Part shown: positions 34,699 to 48,706 of the stretch, piece after piece
How the letters are laid out: the number at the start of each line of letters is the position of its first letter
Numbering within the stretch: position 1 is the first letter of the stretch
NCBI GenBank assembly: GCA_964533215.1
Contig: CAZHLJ010000004.1
Span: 191,587-255,586, forward strand
Direction: 5' to 3'
From: an uncultured Muribaculaceae bacterium
GTDB lineage: Bacteria > Bacteroidota > Bacteroidia > Bacteroidales > UBA932
DNA: 64,000 nucleotides
Program-made: the position numbers and the translations under genes
The notes under the pieces: model-generated
Databases searched by the model: none
Told to the model about the DNA's origin: nothing
Seen by the model: only the letters and a program-made list of their open reading frames with translations

Positions 34699-35433
34699 AT
34701 GAAAAAATTATTGATGTTTTCTTGCATGCTTTTATTGGTACTAGGTGCCAATAGCAGTGCATTTGCTCAGACAAAAGAGCAAGAGGCCGAGATCTCTTCG
34801 GACGTTCCTGAACTGAGCGCTTTCCACACAATCATCTATCCTATGTGGCACAAGGCATATCCTGCAAAAGATGTAGAAATGCTTAAGGGCTTTATTCCTC
34901 AGATTAAAGCTAACATGGAAAAGATGAACAGCGCAAAGCTTCCTGGTATCCTGAGAGATAAAGAGGCTCAATGGAAGGAACAACTTGTAAAATTCAATGC
35001 TGTTGCTGAATCTTACTACAAAGCATGTTCAGACAATGACACTGAGGCTATCCTTAAAGCTGCTGAAAATTTCCACAGAGCTTACGAAGGAATGAACAGA
35101 GTTGTTAAGCCATTCGTTAAAGAGATGGATGCATATCACCAGACTCTTTATGTGATTTATCATAAACTATACCCGGAAAAGAATTACAAGGCAATTGCTG
35201 AAGGAATGGACAAATTCATTGCTGAGGCTGATGCTCTTACCAAGACTGATCCTGTAAGACTGGAAAAAAGATTAAAAGAAAACGTTGCTAAGTATAACAC
35301 TGTAGCAAAAGAACTTTATGACAACACCGTAGCTTTGAAGGCTGCCCTAGGCCAGAAAAATGCTAAGGATAAAGATGCTGCCATTGAAAAAATGCACTCT
35401 TCCTACAAAAAACTGGAAGCCGTATTCAATTAA
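34699..35433 (+). CDS. Exported all-helical protein with two internal His-motif repeats
   Basis: Signal peptide ending AFA-Q; two ~100-aa repeats each with H-x7-H and a distal H. Confidence 0.8.
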   Translation: MKKLLMFSCMLLLVLGANSSAFAQTKEQEAEISSDVPELSAFHTIIYPMWHKAYPAKDVEMLKGFIPQIKANMEKMNSAKLPGILRDKEAQWKEQLVKFNAVAESYYKACSDNDTEAILKAAENFHRAYEGMNRVVKPFVKEMDAYHQTLYVIYHKLYPEKNYKAIAEGMDKFIAEADALTKTDPVRLEKRLKENVAKYNTVAKELYDNTVALKAALGQKNAKDKDAAIEKMHSSYKKLEAVFN

Positions 35434-35452: not shown

Positions 35453-35491
35453 AAAGCCTGACAATTGTTCATCAATCTGTCAGGCTTTTTT
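35453..35491 (+). terminator. Intrinsic terminator
   Basis: AAAGCCTGACA ... TGTCAGGCTTT followed by a T run. Confidence 0.85.
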
Positions 35492-35530
35492 CATTTCCAT
35501 ACATATGAGTTTTTACTACCTTTGTTTAAC

Positions 35531-37300
35531 GTGAAAAAAAATCTGACCATACTTCTCCGGAATATCTATGCCTTTGCCGCCATTCTGCTTATGCTGAATA
35601 CTGGCACAGTCAAAGGGCAGGATCACAATATGATCAATGCAATCAATGATCAGTTCGCATGTTATATAAAAGATAACAATAACGGTGAAGTCCTTAGGAA
35701 CATCGCTTCATTTTTCTTAAGCACAGGGGAGTTCAATCAGGTGATCAGCTACGCGGAACAGCTCAGGAATCTTGGAGAGAGCAACAACAATATGCGTTAC
35801 CGTGCCTATGCCAATGCTTACCTTGGACAGGCTTATCTTATGACCAACCAGGTTGATGCTGCTAAATCATATCTTAACCAGGCACTAAAACAGGCCACTT
35901 CAATTCAGAACGATTCCATACTATGCTCCGTATACAATGGCCTTGGTCTCTATGCTTCAAACGTGGATGCAGATTATAACGGCTCGATAGAACTATTCTT
36001 CAAAGGAGTTGAAGCATCTAAAAGATGCGCTTTTACACGTCTGTACAACATCCTGCTCTGCAATATCTCAGGGGTGTACTATCTTAAAGGTGATGCCAAT
36101 GGTCTGAAATATGCTCAGGAGTGCTATAATTATGGTCACCTGAAAAACGATCCATTCCTTGCCTTGTGGGGAGCCATAAATTCATCCAAGATGTATTTTC
36201 TGATGGGAGAGTATGAGGAGGCACTCAAATATATAAAGGAGTCGGAATTCTTATTGCAGAAAAACAAATACAAGGACCAGGCAGATGTTTATACAACATA
36301 TGGCGATATTCTTCTTGCACTTGAAGACGAAAAAGGAGCTGACAATTATTACAAAGAGGCTCTCTCAAATATAGGCAGTGCAACATCTTCATCCACTGCA
36401 TACGTTTACCTAAGTTATGGAAAGCGGCTCTTATCCAAAGGAAAATATTCTGAAGCTGTTATCCTTCTTGATAAAGGGCTCAAAGTCTGCATTGAAGCAC
36501 ATAACCGAATTTTCATTAAAGAATTTTATGATGCCCTTAGCAAGTGTTACGAAAAAATGGGGGTCTACAACAAATCTCTAGAATATTATAAAATATACCA
36601 CCAAGAGGTAAGCCACGCCTTTAACGAGGAGAGTGAGCGATCCATGAATAAAATGAGAGTACAGTTCGACACCCAAAAGAAAGAGAATGAGGCAGAGCAG
36701 GCACGACTGGAACTTATAAACAAAAACAGGAAGATGCAATCCCTGCTGATAATTTTATCTCTTGCTGTCCTTACCTCCATATATATATATATTCTTTATG
36801 TCCGCAAGAACAGGCTCTACCGGCAGATTATTATCCGAAACAGAGAGGCTATAAAACGCGAGGACGAACTTAAAGAACAGATAAGCAATTTTAAAAAGGA
36901 CTGCCCTGCAATATCAGAAAGGTATTCTGCATCGTCTCTAAAGGGAGACAAAATTGAAGATATGTTTCTTCAAATACAGCATATCATGAGAGAAGAACAT
37001 CTTTATCATGATCCTGCTCTGACAAAAGAGAAAATTGCTGAAATTTTAGGTACAAACCGTACATATCTGTCACAGGTTATAAATGACAGATCTGGCCTGA
37101 CTGTCCCTCAATACATAAATACTTTCAGAATTGATGAAGCTGTGAGGATACTTTCAGATACCAAAGACGATACCCCTCTCAAGGCAATTGCAATTGACCT
37201 AGGGTTCAATTCAATATCCACCTTCTACAAGCTCTTCCAGACTTCAGTAGGTATGACTCCTTCTCTATACCGCAAGAAAGCCCGCGAATTTTCTTCCTGA
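35531..37300 (+). CDS. Membrane-anchored TPR sensor / AraC-family transcriptional regulator
   Basis: N-terminal signal, TPR repeats, TM helix, C-terminal AraC HTH (LGTNRTYLSQVIN, LGFNSISTFYKLF..GMTP); GTG start just downstream of TACCTTTG at 35517-35524. Confidence 0.88.
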   Translation: MKKNLTILLRNIYAFAAILLMLNTGTVKGQDHNMINAINDQFACYIKDNNNGEVLRNIASFFLSTGEFNQVISYAEQLRNLGESNNNMRYRAYANAYLGQAYLMTNQVDAAKSYLNQALKQATSIQNDSILCSVYNGLGLYASNVDADYNGSIELFFKGVEASKRCAFTRLYNILLCNISGVYYLKGDANGLKYAQECYNYGHLKNDPFLALWGAINSSKMYFLMGEYEEALKYIKESEFLLQKNKYKDQADVYTTYGDILLALEDEKGADNYYKEALSNIGSATSSSTAYVYLSYGKRLLSKGKYSEAVILLDKGLKVCIEAHNRIFIKEFYDALSKCYEKMGVYNKSLEYYKIYHQEVSHAFNEESERSMNKMRVQFDTQKKENEAEQARLELINKNRKMQSLLIILSLAVLTSIYIYILYVRKNRLYRQIIIRNREAIKREDELKEQISNFKKDCPAISERYSASSLKGDKIEDMFLQIQHIMREEHLYHDPALTKEKIAEILGTNRTYLSQVINDRSGLTVPQYINTFRIDEAVRILSDTKDDTPLKAIAIDLGFNSISTFYKLFQTSVGMTPSLYRKKAREFSS

Positions 37301-37396
37301 CTTCTCCTCTAATTTTTATTCCTAATTCGGCAATTGCCGCATGTGCGTGTTTATAAAGGGTAAATTGCGTTGCGATTTAACCAAAATTATAAACAT

Positions 37397-40300
37397 ATGA
37401 AACAAAAAGTCTTTTTAATTATCCAACTGTTCCTCGTTGGTTTTTTGGCTTGCTTGCAACCAACCTATGCTCAACAGGCAAGGCAGACTGCTCAAGGTAC
37501 CCGAACTATTAAAGGAACGGTAGTGGATGAAAACGGAGAACCTTTACCGGGTGTCGCCGTTTCTCAAAAAAAAGTCAGCAAAGGACAAACAGTTCAAGTT
37601 GTCCTTTGTGACATTAACGGTAATTTCTCGCTGAACATTAAAAGTGATGTTAAGCAGATAGAGGCCTCATTAATGGGTTATGAAATTCAGATCGTTACAC
37701 TTACCGACAGCAAAGACTACAAAATTCAGCTGAAACCAAGTGCTGAGTTTCTGGACGAAGTGGTTGTCACAGGTATGTTCACAAGAAAGGCCAATTCATA
37801 TACAGGAGCCGTAGCAACTGTAAAGAAAGATGAATTGTTGAAAATGGGTAACCAGAACCTGGTTCAGAGTCTGAAGAATCTGGATCCTTCTTTCCTCCAG
37901 CTAGACAACCTCTCTATGGGATCTAACCCAAATGCCTTGCCAGAACTGCAAATGAGAGGGCAATCGGCTTTCCCTGACATTAAAGGGGAATATCAGAACA
38001 ATCCTAACCAACCACTGTTTATTCTGGATGGATTTGAAACAGCCCTTACAAAAATCATTGACCTAGACATGAACCTTGTTGAGAGCATCACATTGCTGAA
38101 AGATGCCACAGCAAAGGCAATATATGGATCCAAGGCAGCCAACGGTGTTATAGTCGTTGAGACCAAGAAGCCTGATTCCGGTAAAATGAGAATCAATTAC
38201 AATGGAAGCGCTGTCATTGAAGCTCCGGACCTTAGCAGCTACGACCTCGCCAATGCGACAGAAAAGATTGAGATTGAGAGGCTGGCCGGTATGTTTGATT
38301 CGGACAATGTGGTTACAAGAATTGCCAGACAACAGCGTTACAACTCAATCCTTAAAGAGGTTCTGGCAGGAGTGAACACTGATTGGCTCTCCCAACCTGT
38401 AAGAACCGGAATCGGTCAGAAACATTCGCTCTATCTTGAAGGTGGAGATGACCACATGCTTTATGGAATAGACCTATCTTACAATAAAATCACCGGTGCT
38501 ATGAAAGGGTCTGACAGAAACACTTTTAATGGTGGAATAACACTCTCGTACAGATTGAAGGACTTTGTTTTCCGCAACAAACTCTCCATAACACAGAACT
38601 CAGCAAACGAATCACCTTGGGGAAGTTTCTACAACTATGCCCAAATGAACCCTTACAGCAGAATATACGATGAAAAGGGAAACCTTATAAAAACATATGT
38701 ATATACAGAAATGGATGGAAAGGGTGTTGACTCGACTAACCCTATATGGAACTCAATGATCAACACCAAGAATATCTCTGGTTATACAGATATCACAAAC
38801 AATTTTTACGCTGAATGGTCTGTCACCCCTACCCTTAAATTCACCGGACGTCTGGGAATTTCAAATGTGGCATCCTCTTCAGATAATTTCAAACCGGCCA
38901 GCCACACAGACTTTGCCAGCTACTCAGGAGAAGATATTTATAGAAAAGGTTACTATCTGCAGAGCCACAGCAAGACAAATAATTTTAGTGGAGACTTAGG
39001 CGCAAACTATTCAATCACAAAAGGTAAGAGTATCTTTTTTGTGAACGGACAGCTTAGCATAACCAATTACTCCTACGACTATTCATTCGCAGAGGCAGAG
39101 GGTTTCCCAAATGACAATATGGACCATATTATTTTCGCCACACAATATCTTAAAGATGGCAAACCCGGTGGAAGCGAGAATGTTGCAAGAACAATCGGTG
39201 GGATTCTCTCTGCAAACTACTCTTATGACAATCGTTTCCTTCTGGACGGTAACTACAGGATCACAGGATCTTCTGAGTTTGGAGCAAACAACAGATGGGG
39301 TTCATTCTGGTCAATAGGTGGAGGTTGGAACATCCACGAAGAGTCCTTCCTTAAAGGCAGCGACATCGTTAACAGACTTAAATTAAGGCTTTCAACCGGT
39401 TACACGGGTTCGCAGGGATTCAACACCTATCAGGCTATGGCAACAGTCAAATATTTTACGACAAGTTCTTATAACGGGAACATCGGTTCATACCTTGTAT
39501 GCCTGGCTAATCCAAACCTGCAATGGCAGAAAAAGTTTGATCAGAATATAGGGGCAGACTTGGTATTGTTCAATAACAGGTTGACAGGCAGGTTTGACTA
39601 CTATATTGCCACAACCACCAGCATGCTGACGGATGTGACAGTCCCTCAGTCAACAGGTTTCGGCACATACAGGGAAAATCTTGGAGAATCTGAGAATAAG
39701 GGTTTTGAAGGATACCTTAACTTTAAGGTCTGGGAAGACTCTAAAACAAAGAGTTTCCTTAACGTTTATGGCTCTATTGCCCATAACAAGAACACTATCA
39801 AGAAAATTTCCGAATCATTACAGAAGTACAACTCGGAACAGGATGCGGTAAAGAACGGTAAAGACGATTCAAGCACAAAGACCAAGCAGACAACCCCTTC
39901 TGTAAGATACGAAGAGGGACAGTCATTAAACGCAATCTGGGCAGTTCGCTCATTAGGTATTGACCCTCAAAATGGTAAGGAGATCTTCCTGAAGAAAAAC
40001 GGAGAGGTGACTTACACATATTCTACTTCCGATCAGGTTGTTTGTGGGGATCTTTTACCTAAGTATAATGGCAATTTCGGTATAAGCGGCGAATATCACA
40101 ACATCGGTCTTAACATATCGTTCAACTATCGCTTAGGTGGCCAGATCTATAACCAGACACTGGTTGACAAGGTGGAGAATGCCGATATCAAATACAACGT
40201 AGACCGTCGTATATTCACCGACAGATGGCAGCAGGTTGGAGACTATGCTCTCTATAAGTCAATAAAAGACCTTTCTTACACCAGACCTACATCCCGATTT

Positions 40301-40510
40301 GTAGAGGATTACAATATCCTTTCACTCTCCTCAATCAATATCTCTTATGACTTCCGAGACACTAAACTTGTAAAGAATTCATTCCTTGACAGACTAAAAT
40401 TACAGTTCTATGCCAATGATCTGTTCAATGTCTCATCTGTAAAGATTGAGAGAGGAACCTATTATCCTTTTGCCAGGAATTTTACTTTTTCACTTCAAGC
40501 ATCATTTTAA
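37397..40510 (+). CDS. susC: SusC/RagA TonB-dependent transporter (no STN domain)
   Basis: LKDATAKAIYGSKAANGVIVVETK plug motif, ANPNLQWQ, C-terminal ASF; ATG at 37397. Confidence 0.95.
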   Translation: MKQKVFLIIQLFLVGFLACLQPTYAQQARQTAQGTRTIKGTVVDENGEPLPGVAVSQKKVSKGQTVQVVLCDINGNFSLNIKSDVKQIEASLMGYEIQIVTLTDSKDYKIQLKPSAEFLDEVVVTGMFTRKANSYTGAVATVKKDELLKMGNQNLVQSLKNLDPSFLQLDNLSMGSNPNALPELQMRGQSAFPDIKGEYQNNPNQPLFILDGFETALTKIIDLDMNLVESITLLKDATAKAIYGSKAANGVIVVETKKPDSGKMRINYNGSAVIEAPDLSSYDLANATEKIEIERLAGMFDSDNVVTRIARQQRYNSILKEVLAGVNTDWLSQPVRTGIGQKHSLYLEGGDDHMLYGIDLSYNKITGAMKGSDRNTFNGGITLSYRLKDFVFRNKLSITQNSANESPWGSFYNYAQMNPYSRIYDEKGNLIKTYVYTEMDGKGVDSTNPIWNSMINTKNISGYTDITNNFYAEWSVTPTLKFTGRLGISNVASSSDNFKPASHTDFASYSGEDIYRKGYYLQSHSKTNNFSGDLGANYSITKGKSIFFVNGQLSITNYSYDYSFAEAEGFPNDNMDHIIFATQYLKDGKPGGSENVARTIGGILSANYSYDNRFLLDGNYRITGSSEFGANNRWGSFWSIGGGWNIHEESFLKGSDIVNRLKLRLSTGYTGSQGFNTYQAMATVKYFTTSSYNGNIGSYLVCLANPNLQWQKKFDQNIGADLVLFNNRLTGRFDYYIATTTSMLTDVTVPQSTGFGTYRENLGESENKGFEGYLNFKVWEDSKTKSFLNVYGSIAHNKNTIKKISESLQKYNSEQDAVKNGKDDSSTKTKQTTPSVRYEEGQSLNAIWAVRSLGIDPQNGKEIFLKKNGEVTYTYSTSDQVVCGDLLPKYNGNFGISGEYHNIGLNISFNYRLGGQIYNQTLVDKVENADIKYNVDRRIFTDRWQQVGDYALYKSIKDLSYTRPTSRFVEDYNILSLSSINISYDFRDTKLVKNSFLDRLKLQFYANDLFNVSSVKIERGTYYPFARNFTFSLQASF

Positions 40511-40528
40511 CATTATATAGAAACAAAT

Positions 40529-41980
40529 ATGAAAAAGTTTACAACATATAATACAATAATTTCAGTAGCACTGGTCTCTCTCTCCGCCCTGCTACTAACA
40601 TCCTGCGAAAAGTACCTGGATGTAAGGCCTAAATCGGAGATTCCGGTCGGGCTGCATTTTGACAGGGAGAGCGGATTTCAGGACCAACTGACCGGGGTAT
40701 ATACAAAAATGTGCGGCACCAGTATGTATGGACGGGAAATGACTTTCGGGCTTATGGAAGTACTCTCACAGAACTACGACCTGAACTCCAACTCATTATA
40801 TTTCTATGCTTCGCAGTACAATTATGAAGTGACTACCATAAAGTCAAAAATTGATGACATCTGGTCAAATACATATAATTGCATTGCCAACTTGAATGTA
40901 ATGATTGATTATCTGGACAAGGCAGATCCTAAAATCTTTACTGACAACAACTACAGTGTCTTTAAAGGAGAAGCCATAGGCCTTCGCGCCTTCCTTCATT
41001 TTGACATGCTGCGTATCTTTGCTCCAAGTTTTGCCAGCAACCCTGCTGCTCCTGCAATCCCTTACGTTACAAAGTATGAGCCCAAGATAACACCTCAGAG
41101 CACTGTAAGTGAAGCCTTGGACCTTATCATCTCGGATCTGGAAAAGGCCGTGACACTGCTTAAAAAGGACACTCTCTTCACTGCACAATCTCCCTACTAC
41201 GTGACTTCACGAAGAATGTACTTCAACTATTTTGCTGCTGAGGCAACACTTGCCAGAGCCTATCTTTACAAAGGGGACAAGGTAAACGCTCTTAAATACG
41301 CAAATGAGATAATAACCAACAGCGAACTTACCGCAAACAGTGCCCTCAACTGGACTCACTATACCGCACTTGAAACCACCTATGAGTATGAATGTAACAG
41401 GACATATACAGATGAACAGGTATTCCAGTTAAAGATAAATGACCTTGAAGACATTGTAAAATACTACTTCACCTCTACTGCCGGTAACAATGCTCTCTCC
41501 CCTAGCGACACCAAGGCTGATGTGATATTCGAAAAGAGCAGCAAAGGGTATGGTAATGACTATAGAATGAACCTTTGTTTCAAGTATGATGGCGCCAAAA
41601 AGTATCTTTCCAAATTCTGGCAATATGAAAATGATATTTATAACTACTTTTTCCCAATTATCAGGAAGACCGAAGCTTATTACATTGCTGCAGAAATTCT
41701 TAAAGACTCGAATCCAACCCGGGCAATCGAGCTTCTAAATATCGTAAGGTCTCACCGGAAACTCTCTGCTTATGCTTTGCCAAACACATTGACAGCAAGT
41801 GAAATACAGAACGAGATCTTCAAAGAGTACCGCAAGGAGTTCCTTGCAGAGGGACAACTCTTCTACTACTACAAACGGTTAAACCTGCCTAAAATAGAAG
41901 GAGCCGGTGTAGCTGCAAATGACAATATCTATGTATTGCCTATGCCGGATAACGAAATTGAATTTGGCAAGAGAAATTGA
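40529..41980 (+). CDS. susD: SusD/RagB family nutrient-binding lipoprotein
   Basis: Lipobox LTSC, GEAIGLRAFLHFD, ATLARAYLY, EYRKEFLAEGQ motifs. Confidence 0.93.
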   Translation: MKKFTTYNTIISVALVSLSALLLTSCEKYLDVRPKSEIPVGLHFDRESGFQDQLTGVYTKMCGTSMYGREMTFGLMEVLSQNYDLNSNSLYFYASQYNYEVTTIKSKIDDIWSNTYNCIANLNVMIDYLDKADPKIFTDNNYSVFKGEAIGLRAFLHFDMLRIFAPSFASNPAAPAIPYVTKYEPKITPQSTVSEALDLIISDLEKAVTLLKKDTLFTAQSPYYVTSRRMYFNYFAAEATLARAYLYKGDKVNALKYANEIITNSELTANSALNWTHYTALETTYEYECNRTYTDEQVFQLKINDLEDIVKYYFTSTAGNNALSPSDTKADVIFEKSSKGYGNDYRMNLCFKYDGAKKYLSKFWQYENDIYNYFFPIIRKTEAYYIAAEILKDSNPTRAIELLNIVRSHRKLSAYALPNTLTASEIQNEIFKEYRKEFLAEGQLFYYYKRLNLPKIEGAGVAANDNIYVLPMPDNEIEFGKRN

Positions 41981-42017
41981 TCCGGAGAAATAATTTGACA
42001 TTTATAAATTAGACAAT

Positions 42018-42728
42018 ATGAAAAAATTTTTAATATCTATATTTAGTTTGATTTTGGTTCTCTCTCTCTTCCCGGCTTGTGAAAATGAGGGGTTCTATTA
42101 TCAGGACGAAGCAAGGGTACGCTTAGAGGGACCTTATACCTGGGCTGTTGGAACGGACTCCCTTGAGTTCTCATTCCTGACCTCTCCGGCTTCGGTAAGT
42201 GAAAAACAAATGGATATCACCATTTACGTAATGGGGCCTTCATCAAAAGTTGACAGGAAAGCAAATATAAGTGTTGTAAGCGGTTCTACAACTGCCACAG
42301 CAAATCAGTACACTTGCCCTGCACAGGTTACCATCCCAGCAAATTCATATTCCGCAACATTCCCTGTTGTTTTAAAAAGAACATCCGACCTGCAGAGCAA
42401 AGGGGTACGCCTCTACATAAAAGTTGCAGAATCTTCCGATTTCAAGATAGGTGTCTCAGAAAGGAACCACCTTATATTCAAATGGAATGACATTCTGGCA
42501 ATGCCTAAAAACTGGAGTGACCTTACTGAATTCTTTGGTACATTCAGCCTTGTAAAATACCGTTTTATAATCAATAACACCGGAGTAACAGAATTCAGCA
42601 CAACTACAATGAGCTGGGCTCAGTTGATGAACTACAGGATTATCTTAAAAAATGCTCTCAACGCATATAATGCAGCACATCCGAACGACCCTCTGAAAGA
42701 TGAAAATGGACAAATCATTACATTTTAA
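42018..42728 (+). CDS. DUF4843-like surface lipoprotein
   Basis: Lipobox FPAC; DSLEFSF; FFGTFSLVKYRFI; C-terminal PLKDENG..ITF; position after SusD. Confidence 0.75.
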   Translation: MKKFLISIFSLILVLSLFPACENEGFYYQDEARVRLEGPYTWAVGTDSLEFSFLTSPASVSEKQMDITIYVMGPSSKVDRKANISVVSGSTTATANQYTCPAQVTIPANSYSATFPVVLKRTSDLQSKGVRLYIKVAESSDFKIGVSERNHLIFKWNDILAMPKNWSDLTEFFGTFSLVKYRFIINNTGVTEFSTTTMSWAQLMNYRIILKNALNAYNAAHPNDPLKDENGQIITF

Positions 42729-42740
42729 ATTCTGGAAATT

Positions 42741-44306
42741 ATGAAGAATATCACAAAATATACACTTTTCATTTTGCTGGGAGCAGTTCTCTCTATGCAA
42801 TCATGTACACTGGATAAAGGGAACTACGATTATACCGCAGTTTCCGACATCAAGATTGATACAATAGGCGTTGCAAACAGGACCGTACTGAACCAAGCAG
42901 TAATAGGCACTACGGTAAAATTAAAACCGAATGTTACATATACCAAGGATGCCAGCAAACTTGAGTACTACTGGATTATATATCCTTACTACTATTCACC
43001 CGTACAACAGGGAAATGCCATAGTATACCCGCAGGCTGACACTATTTGCCGTACTCAGGAGCTTAACTGGGTAGTGGATGCAACTGCCGGAATGTATAAT
43101 GTTCAATTTGTAGCCAAAGATCCGGGAAATGGTTTGAAGACATTTTTCTGGCTATATATGAACGTTCCAAGCAAAGGCACCAAATCAGGCATGTATATCC
43201 TTTCTGAGTTCAATGGCAAAACAGATATTGAGTTGTTTGGATCTGCAAGAGCCTTGATCATAGGAGGCAACCATTTTGAACCTAAATACTATAGCTCTCT
43301 CAATGGCGGTCAGATGATGAATGGTAAGCCCCTGTTTATCAGCTTCGGAAAAAGCTATTACTATGCCTTCACTGAACAAGAGGGAAAAAGACTGAATGTT
43401 AATGGTTTACAGCTGATGGACAACTTCAGTGAGATGTTTTACTCTGCCCCTTCATATAATCCACAGGCTGTAATGTATACCAACAACTGTGAGTTCATAA
43501 TCAACAACGGAAAGATGCATGTAATGTACACCAGCAAGGCCAATGACCGTAAGTTTTCAGCAGCTGTCGCCGGTTCATATCAAGCCAGCCCTTTCCTTTC
43601 AGACATGACAAGAACGACATATAGGCCAACTGTAGGTGCAATAAATTCCGATCAGATCATATTTGATGAGCAGTCAAATGCATTCCGACCTTACTTCCCT
43701 CAGGCAACAGAGGTAAGCAGTTTCAAGCAGACTGTACCCGGTGCATTTATAGATGCCAACAACTTGGGTATAAAACCGGTAGCCATACTTAACGGCAATG
43801 GAGGCAAAATATACAGCATAATCCATAAAAACGGACATGACTCTCTATATGTAACTTGTTTCTACAATGTAGTTGACGATGGTGACCTATCAATCGGAGG
43901 TAACTCCCGGATAAGTCTGGATGGTTGTGAAGGTATCGCCAATGCAAAATTCTTTGCATCATCTCAGGCAGGAAGCGCATTCTTCTATGCAACTGACAAG
44001 GCTGTCTATTCCTTCTCCTATACCAGCGGTCAGAAAAAACAGCTGGATATATACAAATGCAGCGCTAACGAAGAGGTCACCTGTCTTTATCAGATGCCAT
44101 CCGGTGGTTTCCCTACAGCAGGATGTGTATTATGGATTGCAATCTGGAACTCATCGACAAATGTCGGTAGCCTACGAGAATATGAAATAGATCCGACATC
44201 AGGTGCAATTAACACATTCTGGACTCCAATGTTTGCACCGGAACTGTCAAATCCATCTATCACCACAGGGTTTGGCAAAATCAAGAGCATGACAATAAAA
44301 GCATAA
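42741..44306 (+). CDS. PKD-like family lipoprotein with probable beta-propeller
   Basis: Lipobox MQSC followed by DKGNYDY; C-terminal GFGKIKSM; typical fourth gene of SusC/D-DUF4843 loci. Confidence 0.75.
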   Translation: MKNITKYTLFILLGAVLSMQSCTLDKGNYDYTAVSDIKIDTIGVANRTVLNQAVIGTTVKLKPNVTYTKDASKLEYYWIIYPYYYSPVQQGNAIVYPQADTICRTQELNWVVDATAGMYNVQFVAKDPGNGLKTFFWLYMNVPSKGTKSGMYILSEFNGKTDIELFGSARALIIGGNHFEPKYYSSLNGGQMMNGKPLFISFGKSYYYAFTEQEGKRLNVNGLQLMDNFSEMFYSAPSYNPQAVMYTNNCEFIINNGKMHVMYTSKANDRKFSAAVAGSYQASPFLSDMTRTTYRPTVGAINSDQIIFDEQSNAFRPYFPQATEVSSFKQTVPGAFIDANNLGIKPVAILNGNGGKIYSIIHKNGHDSLYVTCFYNVVDDGDLSIGGNSRISLDGCEGIANAKFFASSQAGSAFFYATDKAVYSFSYTSGQKKQLDIYKCSANEEVTCLYQMPSGGFPTAGCVLWIAIWNSSTNVGSLREYEIDPTSGAINTFWTPMFAPELSNPSITTGFGKIKSMTIKA

Positions 44307-44317
44307 TTTTAATTGAT

Positions 44318-45499
44318 ATGATTAAAAATTTAAAGTACATATTTTCACTTGTCGCCCTCGTTGCGGTGATTTCATGTAAATCTTCCGGACCAGGCTTCAC
44401 AATAACCGGAGAGATTCAGGGACTAAAGGATGGAACTGTATTGGAATTGAAACCAGGAGCTACTCATAAGAACGAAAAAGGCATTGATACAGCCACAGTT
44501 GAAAACGGCAAGTTCACACTTGAAGGAAAAGACCTAGTGGAACCAAGACTATTCTACATAACAGTCATTGCCGACAATACATACGGATCTCTTTCTGTTA
44601 TGGCAGAGCCTGGCAAAATGAAGCTTACTGCCAAAGCTTCATCAAAGGAACAGGACGGACGTATTATGTATAGTTTTGATGACCTAACCGTTGAAGGCAG
44701 CCCATCTCATCTCATCTATAAAGAGAAAACCGCAGTAAGAGAGCGTCTGAATGATCTTTATGAGGAGTACCATGCAACAGGAAAGGCAATTTGTGATTCG
44801 GTTTTTGCTGCCCGCAAAGCCAACGATCAGAAGTTACTGCAGAATCTTTACAAGTCGGAATCATGGAAAAAATTCGAACAGGATGAGAAAAACTTCTTTA
44901 ACACTGTCGACTCCACTATGAACAAGATGTTTCTTGATAATGCCGACTCTTGGTGGGGTCCTTTCCTTATGATGGACCAGATGAGTTATTTCTCAAAAGA
45001 GCAGAAAGAGATTTGGGAAAAATTTTCTGACGTGGCAAAGAACAGCTACTACGGGCAACTGGTCAACAGTGAATTGTTTCCTGTCGGTTTCAAAGGGAAG
45101 CAGGCTCCTTCATTTACTGTAACTAACGACAAGGGAGAGACAATAACCTCTGCCTCGTTATTCAAGAACAGCAAGTATACGTTGGTGGATTTCTGGGCCT
45201 CATGGTGCAAACCATGCAGGAATGAGATGCCAAACTTCAAGAAGGCTTACGAAATGTTTTCTTCCAAAGGGTTCCAGATTGTGAGCATATCAACAGACAA
45301 GAGTGAACAAGACTGGAAAAAGGCTCTTGACGAGGAGAAACTCTCATGGCCAAATTTTCTTGACAGAAACGACATTGCCGGAACTTATAACATAAAGCTC
45401 ATTCCATCTACATATCTTGTAGATGAAAAAGGTGTTGTTGTAGAGGAGAACCTTCGTGGTGAAGCTCTTTTGAAAAAACTTGCGACTCTTTTTCCATAA
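44318..45499 (+). CDS. TlpA-family thiol-disulfide reductase lipoprotein (DUF4369-like N-terminus)
   Basis: Lipobox VISC; VDFWASWCKPC thioredoxin motif. Confidence 0.9.
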   Translation: MIKNLKYIFSLVALVAVISCKSSGPGFTITGEIQGLKDGTVLELKPGATHKNEKGIDTATVENGKFTLEGKDLVEPRLFYITVIADNTYGSLSVMAEPGKMKLTAKASSKEQDGRIMYSFDDLTVEGSPSHLIYKEKTAVRERLNDLYEEYHATGKAICDSVFAARKANDQKLLQNLYKSESWKKFEQDEKNFFNTVDSTMNKMFLDNADSWWGPFLMMDQMSYFSKEQKEIWEKFSDVAKNSYYGQLVNSELFPVGFKGKQAPSFTVTNDKGETITSASLFKNSKYTLVDFWASWCKPCRNEMPNFKKAYEMFSSKGFQIVSISTDKSEQDWKKALDEEKLSWPNFLDRNDIAGTYNIKLIPSTYLVDEKGVVVEENLRGEALLKKLATLFP

Positions 45500-45526
45500 A
45501 AGGGATCTTAGTTTCTGAGAATTTGT

Positions 45527-45568
45527 CTCCTTGCCGGAGAGTCTATATCCAGCAAGGAGCATTTTCTT
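45527..45568 (+). terminator. Intergenic stem-loop (terminator or processing/stabilising hairpin) between tlpA and dsbD
   Basis: CTCCTTGC ... GCAAGGAG followed by CATTTTCTT. Confidence 0.45.
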
Positions 45569-45599
45569 ATTATGAAAAGACAATAATCTTGAATATCAG

Positions 45600-47564
45600 A
45601 TGAAAAAATATCTAATTCTATCTTTTTCATTTCTCATATTGTGTTTTTCTCTTAGCGCACAAATAAAGGACCCGGTAAAATTCAAAACAACGTTTAGTTC
45701 CACACCTTCTGGAGACGGAGAGTTGGTTTTAACAGGTGTAGCAACCACGGGGTGGCACATATATTCCACAGACCTGCCTTCAAAAGGGCCGACATCTGCA
45801 GCTATTTCATTAGACTCATTGAAAGGTGCTGAGCTTATAGGCAAGCTTACACCCGGGTCGGGCGAGGTGGAGGAGTATGACAATGTATTTGACCTTAAGC
45901 TCCGCTTCTTTGAAAAACGGGCTACTTTTGTCCAGAAGATAAAGATAACTGAGCCTGAAAACTATATAATAAAAGGCTATCTTACATTCGGCGCCTGTAA
46001 TAATGAAAATTGCCTTCCTCCTACTCAGGTGCCATTTACCTTTATAGGCAAAGCCGTGAATCCGGCCGATGTCGGCATTATGCCGGATGCTAAGGGTTCT
46101 GGCACGACAGATCTGGAAAAGGCAGGTTTCGGGAAATACTGGAAGCCGGTGATTGACGACCTATATATGAATGGCGAAGAATCCGTCACAACCGATCATA
46201 CCTGGCTCTACATCTTTGCCATGGGGTTCCTTGGTGGGTTACTTGCTCTTCTGACCCCTTGCGTGTGGCCAATTATACCAATGACTGTCAGTTTTTTTCT
46301 GAAGCGGAACAGCACCCGGAAAAAAGGAATCCGTGAAGCTTGGATCTACGGAGTATCAATAGTAGTGATTTATCTGTCACTAGGGCTTGCAATAACATTC
46401 ATTTTTGGCGCAAGCACTCTTAACGCATTAGCCACCAATGCTTTTTTCAATTTATTGTTTTTCTTCCTTTTGATTCTTTTTGCTCTGTCATTCTTCGGCC
46501 TTTTCGAGATCACACTTCCCGCTCGCTGGAGTACCGCTGTAGACAGCAAAGCAGAGAGGAGTACCGGAATTCTGAGCATTTTCCTTATGGCATTCACTCT
46601 TTCCCTGGTTTCATTCTCCTGCACTGGACCTATAATTGGATTTCTTTTGGTGGAGGTTTCAACAGTTGGAAACATATTAGGTCCTGCAATTGGGATGTTC
46701 GGTTTTGCACTCGCTTTAGCCTTGCCTTTTACCATTTTTGCACTATTCCCATCATGGCTGAATTCTGCTCCTAAATCCGGAGGATGGATGACCTCCTTTA
46801 AAGTCATACTTGGCTTCATAGAGTTTGCTTTTGCCTTCAAATTCCTTTCGGTTGCAGACCTTGCTTACGGATGGGGTATTCTGGACAGAGAGGCGTTCCT
46901 GATGATATGGATACTGCTTGCCTTGTTATTAGGTCTATATCTTCTTGGCATTATCCGAATGAAGAACGAAGTCAAACGAACAAAAATTTCGGTGATACGC
47001 AAAATTATGGGTATCGTTTCATTCGTATTTGCCGCATACATGATTCCCGGCTTGTGGGGAGCTCCATGCACCTTAGTCAGCGCATTTGCACCACCTATGT
47101 ATACTCAGACATGGAACATTTACCATAATGACGTACATGCAAAATTCGAAGATTACGACAAAGGGATGGAGTATGCCGCCACTGTAGGAAAACCTGTAAT
47201 GCTGGATTTTACCGGTTATGGCTGTGTAAACTGCAGAAAAATGGAATCTGCCGTGTGGACCGATCCTAAAGTGAGCAAAATCATTAATGAGGATTACATT
47301 TTAATCGCTTTGTTTGTAGATAATAAGACACCATTGGATAAACAGATTTCAATCTACGAGAACGGAATTGAGAGAAAACTTCGTACATTAGGTGACAAAT
47401 GGAGTTTTCTGCAAAGGATTAAGTTTGGGGCCAACGCTCAGCCATTCTATGTACTTGTAGACAATAATGGTTATCTGCTGACAAAACCAAGAGCATACGA
47501 CCAGAATGTTGATGCCTATATCAAATTCCTGCAGGATGGGTTAGACAGTTATAATAAACCATAA
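45600..47564 (+). CDS. dsbD: Thiol:disulfide interchange protein DsbD
   Basis: Alpha-domain CNNENC, TM cysteines TPC and SCTGP, PKSGGWM, thioredoxin domain GCVNC. Confidence 0.92.
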
Positions 47565-47572
47565 TATATTTG

Positions 47573-48706
47573 ATGAAAAATCCGGTTTTGTGTTTATTCC
47601 TTCTTTCTCTCTTTGGATGTACATCCAGAGACAGTTTTGTATTGAAAGGCTATATTTCAAACAATAAAGCACCTGTAGATTCCGGCACAATCTACCTCTT
47701 TAACGGAGATATGTCCTATGCAGATACAACCAAAATCATCAACGGAAAATTCACTTTTTCAGGAAAAGTAGCAACTCCAGATCTATACTACATAATGGTA
47801 GAAGGTTCTCGTGCTTTTGCACAGATATTTCTGGAAAACGACAGATTCAGCCTGGAAGCCTCCCTGGACCGTAACATGAAAGACATCAAGATAGAAGGTG
47901 GTGAAAATCAGGCGTTGTTTTCCAAAGAGGCTGAAAAGGAGATGGAAATCGGGGTGAAATACAAATTCGACGCACTGAATGCTGAATATCAAAATCCAGA
48001 AACTCCTCAAAAGAGGAAGGATGAGATTCTTGACATCTTCAACAAAATTAAAGCTGAGGTAAAGGAATATCGATTCAAACTTATGGATGAATATCCTTCT
48101 TCCTATTTTACACTTAAGAATATCCTTGGAAGTGTTGACCAACTTTCATTTGAAGAGGCATCGAGACGGCTCGCCATTTTCCAGTCAGATCCCCGCTATA
48201 CCGAAAATGAAGATGTAAAGGCAATTCTCAAAGCGATAGAACAGATGAAGCTTATTCAGCCGGGAATGAAAGCCCCGGATTTTTCAATCCCTGACAGAGA
48301 AGGAAAAATCACTAAATTTTCCGATGTCTACAAAGCCAACACAATAACCCTGCTAGATTTCTGGGCAAGCTGGTGTGCACCTTGCAGGAAAGCACATCCC
48401 TACATAAAGGATATATATGCAAAATATCATAGCAAAGGACTGGAGATATTCGCTGTATCTTTCGACAGTTCTCGCGACAAGTGGATTGAGGCAATAGAAG
48501 AGGATGGATTGCCATGGCTGCACTTTTCCGACGTAAGACATTGGAATTCAGTTTCACGCGACCTTTATCTTGTCACCTATGTCCCACAGTATGTACTGGT
48601 AGACTCAAAAGGAATAATTCTAAAACGTAAGATAAGTGAGTCAGAGATAGCCCAGTACCTGGAATCAAATATCAAACTTGAACATCATACGAACTCCAGT
48701 CTTTGA
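47573..48706 (+). CDS. TlpA-family thiol-disulfide reductase lipoprotein (DUF4369-like N-terminus)
   Basis: Lipobox LFGC; LDFWASWCAPC motif. Confidence 0.9.
   Translation: MKNPVLCLFLLSLFGCTSRDSFVLKGYISNNKAPVDSGTIYLFNGDMSYADTTKIINGKFTFSGKVATPDLYYIMVEGSRAFAQIFLENDRFSLEASLDRNMKDIKIEGGENQALFSKEAEKEMEIGVKYKFDALNAEYQNPETPQKRKDEILDIFNKIKAEVKEYRFKLMDEYPSSYFTLKNILGSVDQLSFEEASRRLAIFQSDPRYTENEDVKAILKAIEQMKLIQPGMKAPDFSIPDREGKITKFSDVYKANTITLLDFWASWCAPCRKAHPYIKDIYAKYHSKGLEIFAVSFDSSRDKWIEAIEEDGLPWLHFSDVRHWNSVSRDLYLVTYVPQYVLVDSKGIILKRKISESEIAQYLESNIKLEHHTNSSL

Follow-up and report, generated by a model that had tools for sequence, protein, structure and literature searches.

Many SusC/D pairs of Bacteroidota are encoded without carbohydrate-active enzymes (CAZymes) and have no known substrate. 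What does such an importer take up when the genes behind it encode thiol reductases? The question is raised by an eight-gene cassette at positions 35531-48706 of the window, by which we mean the whole 64,000-nucleotide stretch analysed here (positions 191,587-255,586, forward strand, of contig CAZHLJ010000004.1, assembly GCA_964533215.1), from an uncultured Muribaculaceae bacterium. The genome carrying the window is called G000; other G numbers denote other genomes and L numbers extracted loci. The reading we favour, with a probability of roughly 0.55, is that this sugar-enzyme-free cassette imports disulfide-bonded protein or peptide fragments, which would then be reduced in the periplasm.

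A check of the open reading frames (ORFs) of the window confirmed eight co-oriented genes, and Pfam and NCBIfam profile scans of all eight proteins bore out the names that an earlier, sequence-only reading had given them (Table 1): a TPR-AraC regulator, a tandem susC-susD pair (TIGR04056 above cut-off; SusD Pfams), DUF4843 and PKD_2 lipoproteins, and DsbD between two TlpA proteins. The gap between regulator and susC measures 96 bp up to the susC ATG at 37397 and 69 bp up to a TTG; the remaining gaps, in gene order from susC, are 18, 37, 12, 11, 100 and 5 bp. The window SusC has no N-terminal STN signalling domain, which is present in a paralogue led by an extracytoplasmic function (ECF) system. 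The earlier description of the locus as free of CAZymes also held, both in the Pfam scan, where none of the eight proteins matched a family of glycoside hydrolases, lyases or sulfatases, and in fold searches of the lipoproteins of unknown function. The profile scan likewise gave no peptidase among the eight genes.

Comparison across Bacteroidota separated a conserved core from a variable end. The full eight-gene order recurs in the congeners G031, G023, G004, G024, G355, G354 and G352, mostly with different flanks; the cassette of G352 is cut in tlpA2 by a contig end and that of G003 is split over two contigs. Scanning GTDB genomes with a PKD alignment yielded 59 loci. TlpA was linked in all 53 of those with 1.3 kb or more of sequence downstream (right behind PKD in 52, ahead of susC in one), across Prevotellaceae, Bacteroidaceae, Tannerellaceae, Dysgonomonadaceae, Odoribacteraceae, Prolixibacteraceae, Marinilabiliaceae and Sphingobacteriaceae. 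The subclade includes the cultured Bacteroides reticulotermitis (for example strain JCM 10512), Parabacteroides sp. PFB2-10, which also has DsbD, and Mangrovibacterium spp. TlpA1 orthologues form one clade (support 100), and over 56 loci their distances track those of SusC (rho 0.81), as do those of SusD (rho 0.83), so a tight linkage of TlpA to this SusC subclade is supported. DsbD, by contrast with this 53/53, follows in 3 of the 38 loci that leave 3.5 kb or more for it (congener G352, here L032; L034 of Parabacteroides; L081 of Proteiniphilum), while one further locus carries it divergently upstream. TlpA2, which clusters with a standalone gene, travels with DsbD in congeners. On these counts the conserved unit is a regulator plus SusC-SusD-DUF4843-PKD-TlpA1, with DsbD-TlpA2 as an add-on. 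The locus had been described as wired to a dedicated thiol-reduction chain; the genome, however, has a second DsbD elsewhere, beside which the window copy is an extra one, and we rejected DsbD as a defining part. In relatives, tlpA stays with this SusC clade and dsbD mostly does not. Of 52 genomes of the genus, 10 encode the window-type DsbD, always in addition to another DsbD. The short or overlapping tlpA1-dsbD junctions of congeners favour ancestral co-transcription of the two genes (Table 1).

In a quick tree the cassette DsbD clade is separate from a second DsbD clade, whose members also occur in SusC/D loci (L178, L184 and, DsbD-like, L179), and another SusC/D-adjacent DsbD lies in L123; DsbD has been recruited to SusC/D loci more than once. 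G024 (L179-L182) encodes at least six DsbD-like genes, several of them enlarged (848-974 aa), adjoining SusC/D loci, and one lacks the gamma-domain CxxC. Ten of the loci met in this survey (L046, L047, L066, L067, L069, L071, L074, L082, L087 and L090) are of Bacteroidota type in records titled Bacillota, Actinomycetota or E. coli, and are probably mis-binned contigs. In the B. reticulotermitis record (L038) tlpA appears as two ORFs, by frameshift or sequencing error.

The locus had been singled out as the best candidate in the window for an uncharacterised system; within its genome it is not a singular one. G000 (2.84 Mb in 9 contigs, 99.96% complete) has 39 SusC genes, and 13 of these form one clade with the order SusC-SusD-DUF4843-PKD-like, followed in 9 of the 13 by thioredoxin-fold genes; DsbD is found in the window locus only. 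We therefore rejected a unique system, similar clusters being common in this group. Of the 39 thioredoxin-fold genes mapped, 26 stand no more than six co-oriented genes behind a susC, in a zone that takes in 164 of 2359 genes (hypergeometric p 4e-22; one more thioredoxin match had no called gene). Given this enrichment and the recurrence of the whole cassette in other genomes, the linkage of SusC/D with thioredoxins exceeds chance.

The neighbours of these importers indicate what kind of substrate may be involved. In a FastTree phylogeny, the sister group of the DUF4843 SusC clade of G000 (support 97) consists of 12 SusCs, most of them from loci that encode peptidases or TlpA. Around the other SusC loci of the genome (23 of 26 loci and 51 of 80 neighbouring genes scanned) peptidases are frequent, and three loci join thioredoxins with clear peptidases. 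One SusC/D locus with two Met-zincins ends in a 1068-aa fusion of a thioredoxin domain (WCGPC) to a DPP-IV/S9 peptidase with the S9 nucleophile motif (Table 1). The fusion is 40% identical to the S9 peptidase of a DUF4843-PKD locus, and no full-length counterpart was found in 200 order-wide genomes. In another SusC/D locus of G000, two TlpA genes are followed by one for an exported protein of 645 aa whose C-terminal part is a DsbD_N domain (L200:3569-5503, minus strand; G000:C1:520065-522002).

Across 301 genomes of the order there were 50 DUF4843 matches above the cut-off outside our own genome, and 41 were classified, with one contig-end match and the 8 weakest left out; they stem from 13 genomes, two of which give about half. 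Behind PKD, 15 modules carry thioredoxin-fold genes, 10 an ABC-2/GldG-type transporter, 5 a peptidase alone (Met-zincin, DPP-IV/S9) and 11 nothing or nothing assignable. Three of the 15 thioredoxin modules also have trypsin-like or TldD peptidases, which brings peptidases to 8 of 41 overall, and one module reads TlpA-TlpA-trypsin-DsbD. This cargo, the peptidases near sister SusCs and the thioredoxin-S9 fusion together favour a substrate of protein type. Of the disulfide-containing cargoes suggested at the outset, the gene context thus points to proteins or peptides, and the thiol-bound metal or cofactor ranks lower. The transporter is an alternative cargo, never found together with thioredoxin in this sample (L104, L105, L109, L113, L116, L118, L130, L132, L137 and L143; also L099, the locus at G000:C3:13605). 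In L093 (3486-5285, minus strand) and L136 (4333-6123, plus strand), lipoproteins of about 600 aa with weak similarity to PHB depolymerases or esterases stand between the PKD and thioredoxin genes.

Do the surface proteins speak for another cargo? The PKD protein was modelled (pLDDT, a per-residue confidence score, 91.8) as an Ig stalk with a seven-bladed propeller, and the propeller's best fold match is the BtuG family (Z 23.8, root-mean-square deviation 3.9, 302 residues aligned to 8bmz); the best Foldseek match to the whole-chain architecture is BT1487. A metal chelate or cofactor resembling a siderophore, heme or corrinoid might therefore be captured by the propeller and released or reduced in the periplasm by TlpA and DsbD, the more so since B. 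fragilis, according to the accessible part of PMC5552952, requires trxB to use Fe-ferrichrome. We regard this as unlikely. The margin of the B12-binding BtuG lipoproteins (Z 22.3-23.8) over unrelated propellers (21.1) is small and identity is 8-14%; Rfam gave no cobalamin riboswitch, nor any other, in the window or in 7 related loci; the regulators are AraC or ECF systems; the cargo of the class consists of peptidases, thioredoxins and ABC transporters; and BT3235-44 are not named among the iron-related genes listed for B. thetaiotaomicron in the portion of PMC10434189 available. A B12 locus in particular was rejected, there being no cobalamin riboswitch and the transporter being of SusC rather than BtuB type.

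Neither the PKD nor the DUF4843 protein resembles an enzyme in its predicted model. The top fold matches of the PKD model included no glycoside hydrolase, lyase or sulfatase, so that fold search and Pfam agree in finding no CAZyme domain in this protein. DUF4843 (pLDDT 90.6) combines helices with an Ig domain like the N-terminal stalk of DUF1735/BT3987; the fold search of residues 28-159 gave no catalytic fold, the helical C-terminus being barely probed. PDB sequence searches with DUF4843 returned only a weak DUF1735 match, and an ESM Atlas search only DUF4843 clusters.

Where would reduction take place? Surface export is signalled by acidic residues after the lipidated Cys, as defined in the accessible text of PMC12632263. 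The signal is present in 45/53 SusD, 37/49 DUF4843 and 28/38 PKD proteins, as against 1/29 in the TlpA1 family, in which a lipobox occurs in only 29/60. TlpA1, whose exported thioredoxin fold is ResA/TlpA-like and keeps WCxxC in 60/60, is on this evidence likely a periplasmic reductase acting after import and not at the surface. The earlier suggestion that the substrate is reduced during import is accordingly improbable, and surface-side reduction was rejected. As for the source of electrons, the proposed three-domain DsbD proved complete: Cys pairs stand in the alpha (C133/C138), transmembrane beta (C221/C341) and gamma (C542/C545) domains, all six are conserved in 8/8 aligned relatives, and 8 hydrophobic segments follow the signal, while the score lies under the cut-off of NCBIfam PRK00293 (142 vs 330). 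The TlpAs would act as reductases that depend on DsbD. We found neither DsbB nor VKOR in the 99.96% complete genome, in line with the reducing periplasm described for B. fragilis (PMC5552952, in the part accessible). TlpA as an oxidase partner was also considered, and rejected.

The same reductases might instead service the import machine or general envelope redox, reducing or isomerising lipoprotein cysteines, with a substrate devoid of disulfides. The PKD propeller of the window subclade is indeed Cys-rich (median 7; C396 in 58/60, C250 in 51/60), and B. fragilis TrxP, as cited in the available portion of PMC5552952, keeps periplasmic proteins reduced. Yet cysteines in SusD, DUF4843 and PKD together number on average 8.3 in modules with thioredoxin (n=23) and 8.6 in those without (n=30; p 0.71), the mature PKD proteins of two TlpA-bearing modules are Cys-free, and the thioredoxin-peptidase fusion points to substrate processing. 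A purely maintenance role is, we think, unlikely.

The reading we favour, import of disulfide-bonded fragments followed by periplasmic reduction, would work as follows; we infer every functional step. The SusD, DUF4843 and propeller lipoproteins would capture the fragment and SusC would import it with TonB energy. The periplasmic TPR part of the AraC protein may sense it, so that the susC promoter is activated via a palindrome at 37328. TlpA1, with TlpA2, would reduce the disulfides, and peptidases encoded elsewhere could then degrade the fragment, while DsbD would re-reduce the TlpAs with electrons from cytoplasmic thioredoxin. In most relatives the general genomic DsbD would serve, and the window lineage would have appended an extra DsbD-TlpA2 pair.

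Several observations weigh against this reading. Related genomes are not independent samples. Genes of the TlpA1 clade also follow a different SusD type (L265, L266, L269), and there is an orphan of that clade in G000. No firm thioredoxin gene is present in 26 of the 41 wider modules. The window subclade is almost without peptidases (17 of 22 downstream genes scanned), its operon usually ending after TlpA; the exceptions are a trypsin-like gene (L078) and one for an M15 dipeptidase (L054). A comparison of the SusC with the peptide importer RagA had been suggested, and phmmer put it no closer to RagA (172 bits) or to 8YPT/8YPU (105) than to other solved SusCs (216 and 170), those of glycan systems included; its G000 paralogues score more than 580. 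One paralogous TlpA-bearing module of G000 (C3:177845) has GH38, ROK and sugar MFS genes behind it, beyond a gap of 132 bp. Finally, we take BT3240-42 (PUL52) of B. thetaiotaomicron to be a DUF4843-type module, for which the sole sequence support is a PF16132 match in that species, the only control genome to give one. The last case matters as BT3240-42 were detected on pectin, according to the accessible part of PMC11214529; the substrate of PUL52 is listed as unknown in what is available of PMC13088901.

The pectin result and the GH38/ROK/MFS genes also speak for a third explanation, namely uptake of a glycan or glycopeptide with hydrolases encoded elsewhere and thioredoxins incidental or acting on the peptide part of a glycoprotein. 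The DUF4843 Ig domain resembles stalks of lipoproteins from glycan polysaccharide utilisation loci (PULs; 4dqa Z 12.2, 3poh Z 12.0), but the match is generic (Calx-beta domains Z 11.3). No CAZyme was found in the locus or among the 17 of 22 subclade downstream genes that were scanned, nor any glycoside hydrolase among 45 scanned proteins of the wider DUF4843 class, and the two CAZyme-bearing SusC loci of G000 have distant SusCs and no thioredoxin gene. We hold glycan uptake to be very unlikely. The GH38-ROK-MFS stretch itself (L101:11107-16543, G000:C3) may be a counter-example or a separate operon. In Mangrovibacterium marinum (L078:12857-15057) the core is followed by the trypsin-like peptidase and a serine-dehydratase-alpha-family gene, possibly a cysteine desulfidase, a name that could not be confirmed.

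The control of the cassette can be described in part. From its GTG start the TPR-AraC protein has a signal-like N-terminus and a single internal transmembrane segment, which predicts a periplasmic TPR part and a cytoplasmic AraC helix-turn-helix. A TPR-AraC leads 9 of 47 related loci; most of the rest carry a pair of genes that match an ECF/anti-sigma couple in length. Control by a one-component membrane sensor, as first proposed, is supported for the window locus but does not extend to most relatives. A 12-bp palindrome in the araC-susC spacer is a candidate operator for this regulator and adds to that proposal. The corresponding spacers of 7 congeners retain it, in one case with a mismatch; its core (up to 1 mismatch) precedes susC in 6/10 AraC-led loci vs 0/42 others; it occurs once in the window against 0.02 expected; and where tlpA stands first (L036, L025) it still follows the AraC gene. 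Three of 13 sites in G000 (up to 1 mismatch) are intergenic: one lies before susC, one before C4:168010, the orphan of the TlpA1 clade, and one before C1:207925, which encodes a TPR-TlpA protein. The latter two, at C4:167922 and C1:209471 (L232, L233), lie about 80-90 bp upstream of unlinked exported thioredoxin genes, as a redox regulon serving envelope maintenance would have them; they may mark a small regulon under the window AraC, or be what is left of earlier cassettes. Five congeners gave no confirmation of such a regulon across the genus: of the 36 sites examined there (of 73 with up to 1 mismatch), 5 were intergenic before susC, 2 fell at the end of a contig and all others were inside ORFs; no site was found at homologues of the two satellite genes. 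The TPR-AraC gene is split in G033 (L025:748-2436) and in L038, by frameshift or sequencing error.

A hairpin upstream of the regulator separates the cassette from the preceding genes (Table 1); it was not reported by the consensus scan of the window for sigma-70 promoters and terminators, whose yield was at chance level. The TAnnTTTG box behind it matches what we take to be the Bacteroidetes -7 promoter element. In three RNA runs the cassette was not covered, and they are uninformative on expression. Further upstream, positions 34699-35433 encode a 244-aa exported helical protein without Pfam or NCBIfam match, which has a close second copy at G000:C1:828554-829288 and lies outside the cassette in congeners.

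Table 1. Features of the cassette and of related loci (window positions unless a locus is given).
Feature	Position	Strand	Characteristics
Terminator-like hairpin with T-run	35453..35491	+	RNA fold; candidate intrinsic terminator of upstream lipoprotein-like gene
TAnnTTTG box, candidate promoter element before regulator	35517..35524	+	one of 9 such matches in 15 kb, weak
TPR-AraC membrane regulator	35531..37300	+	TPR and HTH_18; GTG start
12-bp palindrome, candidate TPR-AraC operator	37328..37339	+	araC-susC spacer
SusC TonB-dependent transporter	37397..40510	+	TIGR04056, 580 bits vs cut-off 368
SusD surface lipoprotein	40529..41980	+	SusD Pfams
DUF4843 surface lipoprotein	42018..42728	+	PF16132; Ig domain and helical C-terminus
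PKD_2 surface lipoprotein	42741..44306	+	PF16407; Ig stalk and seven-bladed beta-propeller; predicted binding protein
TlpA1	44318..45499	+	DUF4369 and AhpC-TSA thioredoxin fold, WCKPC; predicted periplasm-facing
tlpA1-dsbD spacer	45500..45599	+	100 bp with hairpin, unique in genome; 1-27 bp or overlaps in congeners
DsbD, three-domain	45600..47564	+	DsbD_N, DsbD_TM and Thioredoxin_7
TlpA2	47570..48706	+	DUF4369 and AhpC-TSA thioredoxin fold, WCAPC
Thioredoxin-S9 fusion	L198:2949-6152 (G000:C7:54945-58151)	-	end of SusC/D locus
Thioredoxin-S9 fusion, congener G024	L179:11047-14241	-	75% identity to G000 copy

More broadly, it is possible, though rather short of an even chance, that SusC-SusD-DUF4843-PKD-TlpA loci make up a separate and so far undescribed class, 'protein utilisation loci' for disulfide-stabilised polypeptides such as defensin-, bacteriocin-, mucin-domain- or keratin-like fragments, in which a co-evolved periplasmic reductase unlocks the substrate for proteolysis and induction is by a ligand-sensing TPR-AraC or ECF system. 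If so, a function could be assigned to the widespread DUF4843 and PKD_2 module, the dozens of exported thioredoxins beside importers in some Bacteroidales would be explained, and the thioredoxin expansion in protein-fermenting Bacteroidota would be catabolic and not a defence against oxidative stress. It would also reveal by what means anaerobes that degrade protein exploit substrates locked by disulfides, and one AraC in G000 would run an importer and two unlinked reductases. The candidate operator offers a direct reporter for screening for the inducing ligand. Peptide-importing SusCDs are already known, and a DsbD within the locus is optional. The searchable papers, with supplements and most subscription journals outside them, did not describe loci of the SusC/D-TlpA/DsbD or DUF4843 kind; the two that name DUF4843 appear to be unrelated, and the accessible parts of PMC4936053 and PMC12632263 contain nothing on this locus class.

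How, then, does the cassette relate to known systems? As in canonical Sus/PUL utilisomes, a regulator, SusC, SusD and surface lipoproteins stand in one operon, but thiol reductases take the place of glycoside hydrolase, lyase and sulfatase, and by the Pfam and fold searches the locus lacks the co-encoded CAZymes of a glycan PUL. PUL52 (BT3235-3244) probably holds the same SusC-SusD-DUF4843-PKD module. The B12 loci of Bacteroides with BtuG and BtuB share the seven-bladed propeller fold of a surface lipoprotein, whereas the cassette has SusC/SusD instead of BtuB and an extra Ig stalk. DsbD and TlpA are a textbook pair, and with the DsbD/ScsB-TlpA periplasmic reducing pathways and B. fragilis TrxP the cassette has in common a three-domain, six-Cys DsbD and ResA/TlpA-like CxxC domains; what sets the cassette apart is that its reductase genes accompany an importer of the outer membrane, and that the presumed client is imported cargo and not the cell's own proteins. 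Two further parallels are SusCD systems known in part from the accessible texts. RagAB of Porphyromonas gingivalis, for which peptide import is established (PMC11817032), likewise has SusC/SusD without glycan enzymes, and for the cassette, too, a proteinaceous substrate is proposed; its SusC is nonetheless distant from RagA, and the cassette adds DUF4843, the PKD propeller, TlpA, DsbD and TPR-AraC. ButCD of B. fragilis, also a CAZyme-free SusCD locus, is established as importing a small disulfide-bearing protein (PMC11467351); its locus encodes a ZnMc peptidase, whereas the cassette has none, and the word 'thioredoxin' is absent from the main text of that paper. The window locus resembles RagAB and ButCD in being a CAZyme-free SusCD system and, by phmmer score, is an orthologue of neither.

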